A DNA stretch of 64,000 bases from Planctomycetota bacterium. GTDB taxonomy: Bacteria > Planctomycetota > UBA1135 > UBA2386. The position numbers and the translations under genes are program-made. Position 1 is the stretch's first letter. Every line of letters begins with the position of its first letter. The DNA is taken from assembly GCA_046290465.1 (NCBI GenBank), contig JBKAGP010000001.1, positions 4,160,001 through 4,224,000 of the forward strand, given 5' to 3'. The notes under the pieces were generated by a model that saw only the letters and a program-made list of their open reading frames with translations, was not told where the DNA came from and made no database searches. Positions 23,506-30,280 of the stretch are shown piece by piece.

Positions 23506-23711
23506 GGCGGGGGCTTGGAGCAATCGTCGTGCCACCGGGATTCGCCACGATCCGCCCGGGGGATCCCCGGAGAACGGTCGGCGGGTGACACCATCCCGAC
23601 AAGGCGCTGTCGGGGCACCGGCGTCACGAGCTTTTTCTCGCCACGGATCTGGCGGATCGGGCCGCGGCTTCCCCTCAGGGGGACGTGATCCCAAACTGTC
23701 AGACCTGTGCC

Positions 23712-24320
23712 GTGAGCGAGCCGACCGAAAGCCCCACGCTGGCGCGACTTCGCGCCGCCAAGTCCGGTGATCTGGACGCCTACGACGAGCTGTTCGCCAA
23801 CACCGTCGACCGGCTGCAGCTGTTCTTGCGGGTGCGGCTCGGCCAGGGTCTGCGCCTCGCCGAGGAGTCGGCCGACCTGCTGCAGGAGACCTACCTCGCC
23901 GCGCACCAGGCGTTCGCCAACTTCGAGATCCCGGCGACCGGCGACCCAGAACGCGCGTTCTTCGGCTGGCTCTGCACCATCGCCGAGAACTGCATCCGCC
24001 GCCGCGCCGACCACCACGGCGCGCAGAAGCGTCGCCCCAAGGGCAAGCTGCAGCGCATCAGCCGGATCATGGAGGGCGTCTCGGCGGGCTCGCTCGGCCC
24101 CGCCACCCGCGCCGAACGCCTCGACCAACGCCATCGCCTCGCGCAGGCGATGCTGCAGCTCGAAGACGGTCCGCGCCAGCTACTCGTGCTGCACCACTTC
24201 GAGAACCTGAGCGGCGCCGAGATCGCGCGCCGCACCCAGCGCAGCGAGAGCTCGGTGCGCCGCGACCTCGCCGCAGCCGTCCGCCAGCTCGGCGCCGCGC
24301 TGAAGGAGGTCGACGCGTGA
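23712..24320 (+). CDS. ECF sigma factor (Planctomycete kinase-associated type)
   Basis: GDLDAYDELF, SADLLQETYLAAHQAF...FFGWLCTIAEN, region 4 LSGAEIARR. Start 23712 or 23685; GTGA-coupled to the kinase. Confidence 0.88.
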   Translation: MSEPTESPTLARLRAAKSGDLDAYDELFANTVDRLQLFLRVRLGQGLRLAEESADLLQETYLAAHQAFANFEIPATGDPERAFFGWLCTIAENCIRRRADHHGAQKRRPKGKLQRISRIMEGVSAGSLGPATRAERLDQRHRLAQAMLQLEDGPRQLLVLHHFENLSGAEIARRTQRSESSVRRDLAAAVRQLGAALKEVDA

Positions 24321-26677
24321 GCACTCCGATCGAAGACGTCGTCGACGCGATCCGGGGGCAGCTGCTGCCCGAGCCCCCCGGCCCCGACGACTCGAAGCAC
24401 CTCGCCGCCCGCCTCGACGCCGACCCCGCCGTCGTCGCCGACTGCGTGCGCGGCCTGCGCGCGCTGCAGTTCGCGCTCGACGAGGACGAACAGCGCGCCG
24501 GCGCCGACGACCTCGCGCCGCCAAAGCTGCCCGACGACTACGAGGTGCGCGACGAACTCGGCCGCGGCGGCATGGGCGTCGTCTACCGCGCCTGGCAGAC
24601 GTCGCTGCAGCGCGAACTGGCCGTCAAGGTCCTGCGACCCGGCGAGCTGGTGTTCGGCGCCGCGATGAACCGCTTCCGTCGCGAGGCGCAGCGGCTCGCC
24701 AACCTGCGCCACCCGCACATCGTCTCGGTGCACGAGGTCGGCGAGGCCGACGGCCACGTCTACTTCACGATGGACCTCGTCGACGGCGGCACCATGCGCG
24801 AACTGCTGCAGCGCCGCCGCATGAACGTCACCCAGTCCGTGCGCCTGATGCTGCAGGTCTGCGAGGCGATCTCGTACGCACACGGCCAGGGCGTCGTGCA
24901 CCGCGACCTCAAGCCGGCCAACATCCTGATCGCCGAGAAGGAGGCCGGCCAGCTCGACGCGTTCGTGGTCGACTTCGGCCTGGCGCGCGACCTCAACACC
25001 GCCGGCGGCTACACGCTGACCGGCCAGGTGATCGGTACACCCGGCTACATGAGCCCCGAACAGGCGCTCGGCCAGACCGACCGCATCGGCGAACGCAGCG
25101 ACGTCTACGCGCTCGGCGTGATGCTCTACGAGTGCCTGACGCGCAAGGCGCCGTTCGCCGACCGCGCGCTGGTGCACACGCTGCAGGCCATCGTCGACGA
25201 ACAGCCGCAGCCCGCGCACGAGGCCAACCGCAACGTCCCGATCGAGCTCAGCGTCATCTGCCAGAAGGCGATGGCCAAGAAGCCGACGCAGCGGTTCGCG
25301 ACCGTGCAGGCGATGATCGAAGAACTGCGCCGCTTCACGTCGGGCGAGCCGATCCGGACGCCGCGGCCGACCGCGCTCGGCAACGCCGGCCAGTTCGTGC
25401 GACGCCACGCGCGCAAGGTGCTGTGGACCGTGCCGCTGCTGCTCGTGTGGGCGTGGCTGCAGAGCAACCACCACGCCGAACGCAACGCGCTGATCGCGCA
25501 GGGCAATGCGCTGTTCGAGCAGGGCAACTACACCGGCGCCGCGGCGTGCTTCGACAAGGGCACGTCGTTCGGCCACGAACTTCCCGACGACCCGCTGACC
25601 TGCATCCGCTACGCGTCGTCGCTGACCCAGGTCGCCGGCCAGCGCTACACCCGCCGGTTCGACATCAACGACGGCTACGACCAGATGCTGCACGCGAGCC
25701 TGCGGGCCGCGCGCGTCGTGCAACGATGGGCGGCGCCGTTCGTCGACGGCGATCGGGTCGACACCGTCATCCCCGCCGAACCGTCGCTGGAGCAACGCGC
25801 GCTGATCGAATGGGTGCGTGCCAAGGCGTGGACCAGCTCGGTCGTGCTCACCCAACCCCAACACAGCGACGCCTGGCTGTGGCCCGATCCGCAGGGCGTG
25901 CGCCACGCGAGCTGGCCGCTGCTGTTCCGACAGCACGCGATGAACCCGGTGCTGCACCAGAACCCCGAACTGGCGCGCGGCCTGGTGCTCGAAGCGTTTG
26001 CCAAGGCCGAGTGGGGCAACGATGCGTATCAAGACCTCGAGAAGCGCGCGCGGTGGCCGGTGCCGATGTTCTCGACCACCGATCGCGCGTTCGAACAGCA
26101 GCTCGTCGACTACGTGCGCACCGAGTCGCCGCTCGGCCGCACTGCGTCGCTGCTGCTGCAGCGTGCTTCGTGCGTGCCGCTGGTCGGCCTCGAGGTCCGC
26201 CGCGACTTCAAGAACATGCGCCGCTGGCTCGACGCCCACGCCGACCGCTGGGAACGCCTCGATCGCATGGACCCGCTCGAGCGCCGGGTCGCGCTCGTGC
26301 AGTTGCTCGCCGACTACCAGGAGGCGCCGCCGCGCGGCTCGCCATACCTGAGCAACCGCCTGAAGCGGTTCTTCCACGACGCGACCGGCAAGGAGCTGGT
26401 CCCGCGCGTCGGTGGTCCGGATCCGATGCCCGCGGGCGACGACCCGCGCGTCTGGATCCTCGACGCCGTCGGCTGGCAGGTGCATCCGGACTCGCTCGAC
26501 CCCCGCCAGACGCTGCGCCAGTGGCGGCGCGAGCGCGAACGGATCGCCGCCGGTCAGCAGGACCGCGGCCGCGACGGCCACTACGCGTCGCTGCTCGACC
26601 TGCTGGTGCCGCGCGACGTCACCCGGCCGCTCGCCGCCGACATCGACGCGTGGGCCGCGGTGATCGCGTCGCTGTAG
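24317..26677 (+). CDS. Membrane Ser/Thr protein kinase
   Basis: GRGGMGVVY, AVK, HRDLKPAN, DFG, GTPGYMSPEQ; TM segment, then uncharacterised C-terminal region. Confidence 0.93.
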   Translation: MSTPIEDVVDAIRGQLLPEPPGPDDSKHLAARLDADPAVVADCVRGLRALQFALDEDEQRAGADDLAPPKLPDDYEVRDELGRGGMGVVYRAWQTSLQRELAVKVLRPGELVFGAAMNRFRREAQRLANLRHPHIVSVHEVGEADGHVYFTMDLVDGGTMRELLQRRRMNVTQSVRLMLQVCEAISYAHGQGVVHRDLKPANILIAEKEAGQLDAFVVDFGLARDLNTAGGYTLTGQVIGTPGYMSPEQALGQTDRIGERSDVYALGVMLYECLTRKAPFADRALVHTLQAIVDEQPQPAHEANRNVPIELSVICQKAMAKKPTQRFATVQAMIEELRRFTSGEPIRTPRPTALGNAGQFVRRHARKVLWTVPLLLVWAWLQSNHHAERNALIAQGNALFEQGNYTGAAACFDKGTSFGHELPDDPLTCIRYASSLTQVAGQRYTRRFDINDGYDQMLHASLRAARVVQRWAAPFVDGDRVDTVIPAEPSLEQRALIEWVRAKAWTSSVVLTQPQHSDAWLWPDPQGVRHASWPLLFRQHAMNPVLHQNPELARGLVLEAFAKAEWGNDAYQDLEKRARWPVPMFSTTDRAFEQQLVDYVRTESPLGRTASLLLQRASCVPLVGLEVRRDFKNMRRWLDAHADRWERLDRMDPLERRVALVQLLADYQEAPPRGSPYLSNRLKRFFHDATGKELVPRVGGPDPMPAGDDPRVWILDAVGWQVHPDSLDPRQTLRQWRRERERIAAGQQDRGRDGHYASLLDLLVPRDVTRPLAADIDAWAAVIASL

Positions 26678-26692
26678 GCCGGCCCCGCGAAT

Positions 26693-26852
26693 CGGACCGA
26701 GCACGTGGTCCGTACAGAGAACGAGAAGGCTGCGCCCGGCGGTCGTTCCAAAGAGGTCGAGAAGGTGTTCCGGCGCAGCCTTCTCACCTCCAACTACGCC
26801 GGCAGGTCGTCGATGTTGCGAAACGGCGCGAAGTTTTCGCAGCCGTTTCGCA
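26693..26852. other. Cluster of hairpins between the convergent kinase and rtcB (terminator and/or structured RNA)
   Basis: CGGACC/GGTCCG (26693-26712); perfect 14-bp IR GAGAAGGCTGCGCC (26723-26736, 26772-26785); TGCGAAACGGC/GCCGTTTCGCA (26817-26852). Confidence 0.6.
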
Positions 26853-26940
26853 GCCGTTTCCCAGGTGTTCCATGGGGGCCGAACCCGACGGCCCGACGCG
26901 CGGTCAGGCCCCGCGAACGAAGCGCCGGTTCCGCGCGTGT

Positions 26941-28026
26941 TCAGCCGCCCTTGTAAGACAGCACCGGTGCCAGGGTGCGCACGATGCGCACCAGCTCCCG
27001 CTGCGCACGCATCACCTTGCCGATGTCCCGGTAGGCCCGAGGCGCCTCGTCGCAGAGCCTGCGCGCCAGCGATCGGTCGAAGGCGACGCCGTGCAGCTGC
27101 CGTTCGAGCTGCTGCGGCGAGATCCGGCGCATCGCCTCCCCACGCGGCAGGCGACGCCCCGCCCCGTGCGAGCTGGACCGCAACGCCGCCGCGCAGCCGC
27201 GACCTTCGACGTGGAACGTCGCGGTGCCCATCGAACCCGGGATGATGCCGCGCTCGCCTGCGTCGGCCGAGCATGCGCCCTTGCGATGGACCATCAGGGA
27301 CTCCCCGTCGTGCACTTCGTGACGCACGAAGTTGTGGGTCACGTCGAACCAGGTCGACCAGTAGAGCTCGACGCCGAACCGCTCGCGCAACCGCTGCTCG
27401 ACGGCCACCGCCATCGCCCGCCGGCTCGCCTGCGCAAATCCGACCGCGAGGTCGTGGTCGCGCAGGTAGCCTGCGGCCTCGCCACCGCGCAGGTCGACCA
27501 GCCCGCGCCGGCCGCGCAGATGGTGGTCCCGGATCGCCGGCCCCAGCGCTCGCGAACCGCTGTGCACCGCCAGCCACAGCTCGCCGCATTCGTCGGCCTG
27601 CAGCTCGACGAAGTGGTTGCCACGCCCGAGCGTCGCAAACTGCACCCGCGCATCGCGCACGACCCGGCGCCGCAAGCCGGCGTCGAGCCGTTCTACGTCC
27701 GGCGCATCGCGCGCCCGGGCATGGCGCACGATCGGCACGGCGTGCTTCAGGTCTCCGAGTACCGCCTCGGCAGCCGGAGCGTCCAGCAGGCCGACGTCCG
27801 CACCGATGCGGGCCGTCGCCATGCCGCAGCCGATGTCGCCACCGACCGCCTGCGGGTAGACGATGGCATCGGTCGCGAGCACGGTGCCGACGCAGACGTC
27901 GCGCGACAGGTGCACGTCGGGCATGACCGCAACGCGCCGCACGCCCGGCGCCTCGGCCAGACGTTGCAGCGCGCGCTCGACCTGACGATCGAGCGGCTCG
28001 CTGAGCCAGCTGCGGATCTCGGTCAT
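26941..28026 (-). CDS. rtcB: RtcB-family RNA ligase
   Basis: MPDVH, GDIGCGM, TLGRGNHFVE, VHSGSR, HN, HRKGA, IIPGSMG, SSHGAGR, DEAP, YKG; GGAGGTGA SD. Confidence 0.95.
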   Translation of the reverse strand: MTEIRSWLSEPLDRQVERALQRLAEAPGVRRVAVMPDVHLSRDVCVGTVLATDAIVYPQAVGGDIGCGMATARIGADVGLLDAPAAEAVLGDLKHAVPIVRHARARDAPDVERLDAGLRRRVVRDARVQFATLGRGNHFVELQADECGELWLAVHSGSRALGPAIRDHHLRGRRGLVDLRGGEAAGYLRDHDLAVGFAQASRRAMAVAVEQRLRERFGVELYWSTWFDVTHNFVRHEVHDGESLMVHRKGACSADAGERGIIPGSMGTATFHVEGRGCAAALRSSSHGAGRRLPRGEAMRRISPQQLERQLHGVAFDRSLARRLCDEAPRAYRDIGKVMRAQRELVRIVRTLAPVLSYKGG

Positions 28027-28367
28027 GCGTCACCTCCCTCGGGAACGATCGTGAACGACAGTTGCGGCGCCTTGCCGCGGTGGATCTCCGCGGCGACGGC
28101 ACTTCGCAAGAACCCACGGGCCCGGTCGAGCGCGTCGAGCGCAGCGACCAGTCCGTGACGACAAGGGTCGACGAATCCGACCAGCAGGTGGCGATCGCCA
28201 CCGATGGCCTCGACGAACTCGACCCGCAGGTCGAGCAGCAACGGATCCGACGTCTCGCCCAGCGCGAACGCCAACGCGTCCTTCACCTGGGCACACAGTT
28301 GGAGGGTCTTCTGTACGGACCGCCCCCCGCGGTCATGAGCATCTGGCATCTGCAAGTCGGGACGCAC
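28023..28367 (-). CDS. RbfA-like (ribosome-binding factor A fold) paralog
   Basis: About 114 aa; LDALDRARGFLRSAVAAEIHRGKAPQLSF resembles the RbfA C-terminal GFLR...P.L.F pattern; ATGA overlap with rtcB. Start uncertain. Confidence 0.75.
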   Translation of the reverse strand: MRPDLQMPDAHDRGGRSVQKTLQLCAQVKDALAFALGETSDPLLLDLRVEFVEAIGGDRHLLVGFVDPCRHGLVAALDALDRARGFLRSAVAAEIHRGKAPQLSFTIVPEGGDA

Positions 28368-28414
28368 CGGTAGCGCGTCGAACAGGGTCCGGGATAGCGA
28401 ACGGGTCGACTTCA

Positions 28415-28500
28415 GCCCCGGCAGGCGCGCGGACTCAGATCAGTCCAGCGCAGACCGGGGCGCGTACACAGCTGTGCAGATGCTTCGCATGGTTGGCTCC
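28415..28500 (-). promoter_or_regulatory. Leader ORF (28440-28490, MRSICTAVYAPRSALD) whose stop lies in an attenuator-like hairpin
   Basis: GGAG SD before ATG 28490; mRNA stem GCCCCGG/CCGGGGC, GCGC/GCGC, GGACU/AGUCC with the UGA at the apex; in frame with the rbfA-like gene. Confidence 0.6.
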
Positions 28501-28561
28501 AGTGGGGTGGGGACGGTAGCCCGCCTTTTCCGATGCGCAACCCCCTCGCTACGATGGCCGC

Positions 28562-30280
28562 ATGCAGGGAACCACCAGGAGAGCGATCGTGTCCGCCTGC
28601 GCGTGGGCCGCCCTCGCGACGTCCGCGACGGCGCAGGAAGCCACGCGATGGCTGCGGGACGTCGGCGCTGCCGACCTGCGCGTCAGCGAGGCCGCCGAAC
28701 GCAAGCTCGTCGCGATGGGCGCCAAGGCGGTGCCGTTCGTCGAACGCGCGATGGACGAGTGGGACGACCAGAAGGGCGAGGGCTACAACCGCTGCGCGGC
28801 GCTGCTCCGCGTGATCCGGCTGCTCGGCCCGGACGCGGCAGGGCTGTCGTCACGGCTGAGGCAGGTCGGGGCCGACTCGGGCAACCTCGGTCCCGAGATC
28901 TACCACGTGCTGGCCGGGCTCGAGCCGTTTGCCGGGGACAAGAACTGGCACGAGATGATGCACTTCCTGCATCACCAGGACCCGGAGCGGGTCAAGCAAG
29001 GCTTCGTCGGCTACATCCGCATGTATGCGCGCGTGCACTGCGGCGACGTCACCGACGCCGACCGGATGATCCAGGTGCTGCGCGAGGACAAGTCCGGCGC
29101 GCGCGAAGCGGCGGCCGAGGCGCTCGGACGGCTGCGCCATCCGCGCACGGTCGAACTGCTGCACGCGCGCCTGCGGCAGCGCACGCCGGCGGTCGACGCC
29201 GACCAGTTGACGCACAACGGCTTTCCGGTGCCGTTCGACGACGAGTTCGCGTTCCGCGCCAGCGAGGTGATGATCCAGCTCGCGCCCAACGACGAGCGGT
29301 GCGTGATCGCCTACGCCAACCGCGCGCTGCACCATCCGCACGCGACGGCGCGCCGGGAGGCGCTCAACCGGCTGGCGGCGTTCGGGCCGATGGCGGCGGA
29401 GGCGACGCCGGAGCTGATGCGGATCGCCGAGGGCGACGACGATGCCCTCGCGATCGAGGCGCTCAAGGTGCTCGGCATGGCCGGCAAGGCGGTCGCTCCG
29501 TTCGCCGTGCGGGTGCAGGCGATGACCCGCAGCGAGACCAAGGTCCGCGCCCGGCTCGCGGACGGCCTGATCGCGCGGCTGCGGGCGATGGGGGTCGAGG
29601 TCGCGGACGCCGTCGACGACGGCCCCGACGAGGGTCTCGCCGCGCTGCGCAAGACGATCGAGGCGCTCGACGACGACGCGACACCGGCGATTCGCAAGGA
29701 GGTGCTCGCGGACCAACGCAGCTGGGCGCTGCTGGTCGATCGCTACCGACGCAAGCGCCACGACGCGCCCGACGTCGTGTTCGAACTGCTGATGGACCTG
29801 GCCTGGCAACAGCCGAAGGAGCAGCGCGACCTGGTCCGCCATGCCGTCGCGACCCTCGGCGGCGACCACTGGAGCGCGTCGGTGATGTCGAGCACGTCGC
29901 ACGGCAACCAGAAGACGCGCGCGATCCACCGACGCACCTACGCGCACCTGTCGGTCGACCCCGAGGCCGACCTCGGTGCGCTCGTCGGTCTGCTCGACGC
30001 CAAGAACGCGCCGGTGCGGCTACGCGCCGTCGAACTGCTGTCGGCGCGGCGCGCCGAGTGGGCGGTCGGCAAGCCCGAGCACGAACGCGTGCAGACGGCC
30101 CTGCGGGCAGCCACGCTGGCCAAGGCACCCAAGCAGAGCGTGTACGAGCTGTCGGCCAACCACAACACCTCGCTCGACGGAACCGACCTGACCGACGAGA
30201 TCCAGGCGGCCGCCAAGGCGGCACTGGCGCCGGCGGACGACGGAAGCATCGACAAACGAAAGCCGCGAGGACCGACCTAG
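28562..30280 (+). CDS. Secreted HEAT/PBS-lyase repeat protein
   Basis: Signal peptide ending ATA-Q; repeats such as AREAAAEALGRL, ARREALNRLAAFG, VRLRAVELL. Confidence 0.75.
   Translation: MQGTTRRAIVSACAWAALATSATAQEATRWLRDVGAADLRVSEAAERKLVAMGAKAVPFVERAMDEWDDQKGEGYNRCAALLRVIRLLGPDAAGLSSRLRQVGADSGNLGPEIYHVLAGLEPFAGDKNWHEMMHFLHHQDPERVKQGFVGYIRMYARVHCGDVTDADRMIQVLREDKSGAREAAAEALGRLRHPRTVELLHARLRQRTPAVDADQLTHNGFPVPFDDEFAFRASEVMIQLAPNDERCVIAYANRALHHPHATARREALNRLAAFGPMAAEATPELMRIAEGDDDALAIEALKVLGMAGKAVAPFAVRVQAMTRSETKVRARLADGLIARLRAMGVEVADAVDDGPDEGLAALRKTIEALDDDATPAIRKEVLADQRSWALLVDRYRRKRHDAPDVVFELLMDLAWQQPKEQRDLVRHAVATLGGDHWSASVMSSTSHGNQKTRAIHRRTYAHLSVDPEADLGALVGLLDAKNAPVRLRAVELLSARRAEWAVGKPEHERVQTALRAATLAKAPKQSVYELSANHNTSLDGTDLTDEIQAAAKAALAPADDGSIDKRKPRGPT

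Follow-up and report, generated by a model that had tools for sequence, protein, structure and literature searches.

A conserved leader ORF that folds over the start codon of an RbfA paralog–RtcB operon in Planctomycetota, a putative reporter of arrested ribosomes

Analysis of a 64,000-nt stretch of a Planctomycetota genome (the window, i.e. the whole stretch of DNA analysed) drew attention to a short leader ORF in front of a two-gene operon encoding an RbfA paralog and an RtcB-family RNA ligase (Table 1), and comparison of orthologous loci indicates that this leader is a real, conserved cis-regulatory element. We propose, at a probability of roughly 65%, that it acts as a translational attenuator which would signal that ribosomes have become arrested at, or close to, translation start. 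Because the leader folds back over the start codon of the rbfA-like gene, a ribosome stuck at its beginning is predicted to turn the operon on, and probably it is in this way that the repair genes are switched on. The architecture appears unusually simple, consisting of one helix with no Shine-Dalgarno (SD) sequence and no peptide code. In the literature searched, which comprised neither a 2016 RNA-repair survey (PMC5062991) and a study of a Myxococcus RtcB paralog (PMC4621082) nor supplements, no description of the RbfA-like/RtcB operon or its leader was found.

Table 1 Coordinates of the leader, the operon and the flanking genes in the window.
Feature	Position	Strand	Remarks
Putative sigma-70 promoter	28513..28540	-	-35 at 28540-28535, -10 at 28518-28513, 16-nt spacer
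Shine-Dalgarno GGAG of leader ORF	28497..28500	-	anti-SD duplex -5.6 kcal/mol at this locus
Leader ORF	28440..28490	-	16 codons (MRSICTAVYAPRSALD), ATG 28490, TGA stop 28442-28440
P1 5' strand, anti-start-codon sequence	28475..28483	-	leader nt +8..+16, codons 3-6
P2 hairpin, 47 nt	28415..28461	-	leader codons 10-16 paired with sequence past the stop; stop at apex
P3 hairpin just 5' of main start	28361..28379	-	contains GTG 28367
P1 3' strand with SD-poor start codon ATG 28349	28346..28354	-	pairs with 28483-28475
RbfA paralog, 108 aa	28023..28349	-	start ATG 28349
RtcB-family RNA ligase, 361 aa	26941..28026	-	ATGA overlap with paralog stop; strong SD
ECF-type sigma factor, then Ser/Thr kinase	23685-26677	+	convergent on rtcB
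HEAT-repeat protein gene	28562-30280	+	divergent from leader promoter

The protein encoded by the first gene scores below the cut-offs of both Pfam RBFA (20.9 bits against 34.7) and TIGR00082 (17.7 against 51.15). Its structural model (pLDDT 89.5) matches RbfA of T. thermophilus (2dyj; E 1.9e-5, rmsd 1.8), the top 8 Foldseek matches are RbfA or RbfA-30S entries, and RbfA was the only match when a profile of the paralog was compared with the PDB; by these models, the first gene product has the RbfA (type II KH) fold. As a canonical rbfA occurs at another place in the genome, following infB, we regard the rbfA-like gene as a paralog. Searches returned 44 homologs at E ≤ 0.001, the taxon-labelled ones being assigned to Planctomycetota or bacteria, and the family alignment (A3) collects 661 representatives at E ≤ 1e-10; a single-protein search of genome contigs gave only one spurious locus. 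The family in A3 is recognisable by K-x-x-Q-L-C-x-Q in the first helix, a motif whose Cys is near-invariant. The preliminary description had placed the start of this gene at GTG 28367, a choice that did not withstand comparison: 36 of the 44 homologs measure 105–109 aa, none aligns to the 24–30 residues upstream, and a GTG at the −18 offset recurs in only 2 of 35 orthologous loci. Judged from the homologs, the paralog starts at ATG 28349 instead.

The second gene product matches Pfam RtcB (PF01139) with 238 bits, above cut-off, and carries DxGCG, GNHF, HN and HGAGR, which we take to be the RtcB motifs, while remaining below the RtcB2 cut-offs of TIGR03073 and PRK09588 (156.7 < 271.8 and 194.2 < 407, respectively). 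The gene adjoins the paralog in 34 of 35 loci, the remaining locus ending at a contig edge, and the two overlap by a −1 arrangement in 31 of these 34. No prfH is present in the operon, the partner of RtcB being the RbfA-fold protein. The structure around the rtcB ribosome-binding site has a median stability of 20.6 kcal/mol, a value that stands without shuffle control, and is only suggestive of translational coupling with the paralog. At a distance of 120 kb, a second rtcB (C1:4306297-4307760) is followed by an rtcA-like gene and preceded by a sigma-54-like promoter and a long GC-rich 5' leader; the rtcA-like gene and the promoter were assigned by eye.

At the locus itself, the GGAG, the ATG, the 16 codons and the TGA that had been assigned to the leader ORF were all re-found on the minus strand. 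The standard anti-SD is present in the 16S tail, and the leader SD forms a duplex with it at a median of −9.3 kcal/mol over 31 loci. The TTG and TA columns of the putative sigma-70 promoter are invariant or near-invariant in the alignment of 34 loci (A2), and a promoter scan made 0 calls, the putative boxes being too distant from consensus. The ATG of the divergent HEAT-repeat gene lies only 22 nt from the −35 box, and the promoter of this gene probably overlaps that of the leader. Two short contigs of a metatranscriptome run (X1, a small share of words) cover 27861-28225, and no contig of this run covers the leader; as such contigs cannot show transcription or transcript ends, they were left out of account. 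An Rfam covariance-model search over the leader gave no match at E ≤ 5, and no further copy of this leader type stood out in scans of its own genome.

For the comparison of orthologs, 49 loci scoring at least 90 bits against alignment A1 were collected, from which 13 duplicates and 1 locus truncated within the leader were removed to leave 35 distinct loci, with the leader found by rule in 31 and placed by hand in 4. Two of the 35 differ in a single base, so that 34 were used for alignment A2, for pair counts and for counts of the P1 helix. The loci are drawn from a single family together with its metagenomic kin; as close relatives they are not independent, and part of the conservation reflects inheritance. 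The preliminary description had made its reading depend on a leader conserved in orthologs, and an SD-led leader ORF was indeed found at 35 of 35 assessable close loci. Of the further properties that it had proposed to align, the reading frame is not conserved and covariation is weak in the P1 helix described below. The leader spans 15 codons in 3 loci, 16 in 30, 17 in 1 and 21 in 1, i.e. 15–17 codons in 34 of 35, its start interchanges between ATG and GTG, and only two gaps of 3 nt each fall inside the ORF in A2. Over codons 2–16 of 30 leaders, pN exceeds pS (0.23 against 0.13), whereas 28 codons of the main gene display the opposite (pN 0.15, pS 0.37), so that, as judged from substitution patterns, the leader is constrained as RNA and not as peptide. 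The distance between leader and main AUG varies from 131 to 222 nt. The presence of a leader 5' of the rbfA-like/rtcB pair at 35 of 35 close loci and at 13 of 13 distant rtcB-linked loci bears out the suggestion that it is well placed to sense ribosome behaviour.

The preliminary description named UGA readthrough by impaired ribosomes as one possible switch. On such a reading, error-prone ribosomes would pass the leader stop, or selenocysteine would be inserted there, to yield an N-terminally extended RbfA-like protein. At the present locus the frame permits this: the 24 sense codons that had been noted after the TGA, in frame up to GTG 28367, were confirmed, 30 codons separate the stop from ATG 28349 with a gap of 90 nt, the frame is also open to the main ATG in four other loci, UGA is the stop in 30 of 35, and the genome contains tRNA-Sec. 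Against this, the leader lies in frame 0, 1 or 2 relative to the main ATG in 11, 10 and 14 of 35 loci, so that 24 are out of frame; 6 more contain further stops, leaving 5 of 35 open, and the extensions of these share no sequence. UAG (4) and UAA (1) replace UGA in the other 5 loci, the base after the stop is unconstrained, only 2 of 13 distant leaders are open in frame to the main gene, and no homolog covers the extension. With neither stop identity nor context, frame or extension conserved, the readthrough claim has to be abandoned, and we regard an extended protein as hardly credible; the in-frame arrangement seen here is, on these counts, a one-in-three accident. A selenoprotein was likewise excluded by the stop, frame and extension counts despite the tRNA-Sec. 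The alternative that orthologs carry a sense codon at this position, which would point to a nonsense mutation or a sequencing error, did not hold either, since a stop codon is present in 35 of 35 loci. In run X3, a contig from another strain that differs at 6 positions in 1001 nt has the TGA unchanged, ruling out a sequencing error; contigs of runs X2 and X4 break within the hairpin.

The most conserved pairing of the leader is one that is absent from the preliminary description. A 9-bp helix (P1), present in both the MFE and the centroid structure and with a shuffle frequency of 0.003 at this locus, buries ATG 28349 and closes the whole leader, with the hairpins P2 and P3 nested inside; the 150-nt leader folds with a z-score of −4.3. 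The core of P1 pairs leader nucleotides +9..+15 with nucleotides −4..+3 of the rbfA-like start. A Watson-Crick P1 of at least 7 bp over the AUG occurs in 28 of 34 loci against a mean of 5% in shuffles, and in 27 of these 28 the register of the longest helix places leader +9 opposite the G of the AUG, whereas 6 of 34 loci have no such helix. The AUG is paired to the leader with a probability of at least 0.65 in 29 of 35 loci. P1 cells are paired in 82.8% and basal P2 cells in 96.5% of cases, and 0 of 500 shuffles were equally high. Double changes fall mostly in P2, the basal helix of which has 9 double-change cells; covariation in P1 is weak, with a double change in 2 of 9 pairs and one sequence each, and a single clean G-C to A-U double change at locus L003.

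Both hairpins named in the preliminary description were recovered. The 47-nt hairpin P2, with the U of the UGA closing the stem and GA in the loop, reaches −34.4 kcal/mol (z −5.5, a stability attained by 0 of 200 shuffles), and in 30 of 34 loci its basal helix has leader +33 as the first nucleotide. The second stem around GTG 28367, P3, is less extreme at z −2.2, with 4 of 200 shuffles as stable; its arms (positions −30..−14) have mean pairing probabilities of 0.8–1.0 over 34 loci. The main gene is SD-poor, with a median SD duplex of −1.7 kcal/mol in 31 loci, and is preceded by a near-invariant GCAG. At the present locus, the main-gene duplex of −5.3 kcal/mol, similar to that of the leader, stems from a far-spaced GGUG buried in P3.

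A C/U-rich stretch between P2 and P3 offers a foothold for mainly transcriptional control, in which leader translation would gate Rho-dependent termination or mRNA decay in this pyrimidine-rich spacer and P1 would be secondary; the PA5471.1 leader works by transcription attenuation of armZ (PMC13041342). Since no intrinsic terminator was found in 26600-28800 and the start codon itself lies within the best-conserved pairing, we consider such control improbable.

Leader codons 4, 5, 7, 8, 12 and 15 are near-invariant (28–30 of 31), and a second, SD-led mini-ORF in the genome, located upstream of an SPFH gene, also begins with M-x-x-I-C, both of which would fit a specific nascent-peptide or codon signal (Ile-Cys, Ala-Val) that senses one drug, cysteine or one tRNA. 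The invariance, though, concerns single codons that lie largely in helices, pN is above pS, orthologs of the second mini-ORF lose the I-C, and the distant leaders are without a common peptide, which makes a signal of this kind very unlikely. Given that pN/pS relation and the distant leaders, no conserved nascent-peptide stall motif was found. A partner helix of at least 6 bp for leader +16..+28, which includes codons 7–8, was found in only 10 of 35 loci, and the near-invariance of these two codons is not accounted for by pairing in most loci. M-x-x-I-C was also considered as a regulon motif and rejected as chance, as six similarly placed mini-ORFs among 22 other SPFH loci are without it. The region upstream of the SPFH/Band-7 gene (C1:3662850-3664830) comprises a sigma-70-like promoter, a short ORF with a terminator-like hairpin and a second, SD-led ORF of 10 codons, as well as a tRNA-like element (Rfam tRNA, 56 bits) with a broken acceptor stem that was missed by ARAGORN. 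In 17 of 23 loci a T-loop motif recurs 370–490 nt upstream of the SPFH gene, with anticodon loops that vary between loci, and the locus may represent a further translation-stress module that includes a conserved tRNA mimic. A gene pair for an HTH protein and a HipA-like kinase lies nearby (L091:13580-15786, plus strand).

To describe how a translating ribosome may act on P1, a footprint model was used in which the leader nucleotides covered by the ribosome were forced single-stranded and the energy required to open the main start region was computed. The median opening energy amounts to 10.2 kcal/mol for the free RNA, 5.7–7.1 with a ribosome at codons 1–9 and 9.4–10.7 from codon 11 to the stop; with the 3' edge of the footprint at +15, the medians are 5.0 kcal/mol for a ribosome on the leader start codon and 9.5 for one on its stop. 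A ribosome at the start lowers the energy by at least 2 kcal/mol in 28 of 35 loci compared with 10 of 35 for a ribosome at the stop, and the present locus yields 11.7, 5.3 and 11.7 kcal/mol for the free, start and stop states, respectively. The test is partly circular, in that masking the P1 5' strand necessarily removes P1; what it adds, within the model, is that the AUG is not re-closed early by anything else and that P1 re-forms late.

From the alignments and this model we infer induction by stalling on the leader, with the following course. With no ribosome on the leader, or with one at codon 11 or later, the AUG would be buried, and it would be open while a ribosome occupies codons 1–9. 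Healthy ribosomes would pass these codons fast and the AUG would close again, whereas ribosomes that initiate without elongating would park on the anti-AUG strand; candidate causes of the arrest are a cut decoding centre, damaged or missing tRNA, and early-elongation inhibitors. The remaining intact ribosomes would then produce the RbfA paralog and, through coupling at the ATGA, also RtcB, the leader peptide sequence and the identity of its stop being incidental. SD-less initiation requires an unfolded AUG (PMC3121790), and ribosomes whose decoding centre has been cut by colicin E3 are arrested on the start codon, their toeprint lying about 15–16 nt downstream (PMC13166195). We count the latter for arrest at the start, as this span coincides with the P1 5' strand. 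Short-range reinitiation has been proposed for gaps of about 10 nt (PMC4833913), as compared with 90 nt here. Start-codon arrest is what we predict as the signal.

Ordinary initiation events on the leader are expected to open P1 part of the time as well. Were ordinary leader translation alone to open the helix, output would track leader initiation and there would be no induction by damage, a logic of long-range translational coupling that is represented by the MS2 coat-replicase pair and plasmid repA leaders. Such constitutive coupling would present an identical helix and footprint profile together with an unconstrained peptide; as P1 re-forms after codon 10, however, fast transit would open the start only briefly, and among distant paralogs leaders track linkage to rtcB (13 of 13 against 5 of 25), which suggests stress control. 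We therefore hold it to be unlikely.

These distant paralogs were gathered with the broader profile A3, which matches 59 of the 301 genomes searched in the class and 46 of the 401 in the phylum. From the 30 best matches of each search, 38 distant loci were taken, 10 of them in the class search and 28 in the phylum search. An SD-led ORF of 9–32 codons lies upstream of every rtcB-linked member and of the few unlinked ones counted above. The 13 rtcB-linked leaders end in TGA (9), TAG (3) or TAA (1), and at several distant loci the SD is paired with an anti-SD located after the leader stop in place of a direct AUG helix. In the footprint model for 16 distant loci, with main starts set by eye, the median is flat (10.0 kcal/mol free against 9.6 at codon 3), and the opening energy drops by at least 3 kcal/mol at codon 3 in only 4 of 16. 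Because of this flat profile, the exact anti-AUG logic cannot be generalised to the distant loci: the leader is general to this operon type, and the direct anti-AUG design belongs to the present clade. At three loci (L160, L165 and L166) the paralog has an 18-codon SD-led leader with no rtcB within 1.5 kb downstream, and here the leader may serve the paralog itself. Nine stand-alone paralogs of one family (L147, L153, L154, L156, L161, L163, L164, L170 and L173) have a −10-like hexamer a few bases 5' of the ATG, which suggests leaderless mRNAs instead of a leader ORF.

Returning to the proposed attenuator, a more specific version would make the damaged ribosome itself the inducer, opening a 30S-repair module in which the RbfA paralog brings the ligase to nicked small subunits. 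The anti-AUG strand at +9..+15 would then be placed for a ribosome that fails its first elongation step, e.g. after a 16S cut in the decoding centre, and the RbfA paralog would take the role that PrfH has for RtcB2. We put this version forward tentatively, as a possibility of clearly lower weight. If true, the leader would be a compact, peptide-independent start-arrest sensor of damaged ribosomes, the operon a third, hitherto undescribed kind of RtcB repair operon in bacteria, and ribosome repair a candidate new function for RbfA-fold proteins. More broadly, the pairing of an RbfA paralog with RtcB appears to be an undescribed ribosome-stress module, spread across Planctomycetota and equipped with a probable switch.

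Set against known systems, the leader would work like the erm/cat and PA5471.1 attenuators, yet it fails their peptide-motif, terminator and prfH features and has no Rfam match. In the erm/cat leaders (ermC, ermB, cat), a peptide- and drug-specific stall typically frees an SD via alternative stems. Common to both are a conserved SD-led uORF, a downstream initiation site that is sequestered (here in silico) and a stalled ribosome proposed to free it; unlike in erm/cat, there is no constraint on the peptide, the gene has a poor SD, and leader codons 3–5 pair directly with the AUG. With prfB frameshift autoregulation and stop-codon recoding the locus shares an in-frame UGA that precedes a coding region of translation-factor type, but recoding sites keep stop, context and frame, none of which is kept here. 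Also among the closest parallels is PA5471.1 of Pseudomonas aeruginosa, a leader peptide that controls armZ (PA5471, RtcB-like) and PA5470/prfH, the RtcB-like gene being induced via leader stalling and an amber at codon 3 mimicking the stall (PMC12057347, PMC13041342, PMC3884212). There, too, a short leader ORF lies 5' of an RtcB-family gene, which in our operon is the second gene (34 of 35 loci), and impaired ribosomes are sensed with early arrest meaning ON, as we propose likewise. Its proposed output is a transcription terminator and its partner a release-factor homolog, whereas here a helix hides the start codon, the partner is an RbfA paralog and 0 intrinsic terminators were found. In RtcR/sigma-54 rtcBA operons, RtcB is reported to be induced by translation damage, as proposed here, with a protein sensor and sigma-54 in place of a cis leader; the second rtcB of the present genome, as judged by eye, is of that kind. 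The RtcB2-PrfH ribosome repair module (PMC13166195) likewise combines two genes, for a ribosome-binding factor homolog and an RtcB ligase; the present operon differs in that its first gene has the RbfA fold and not that of a release factor, and in that its ligase stays below the RtcB2 cut-offs.
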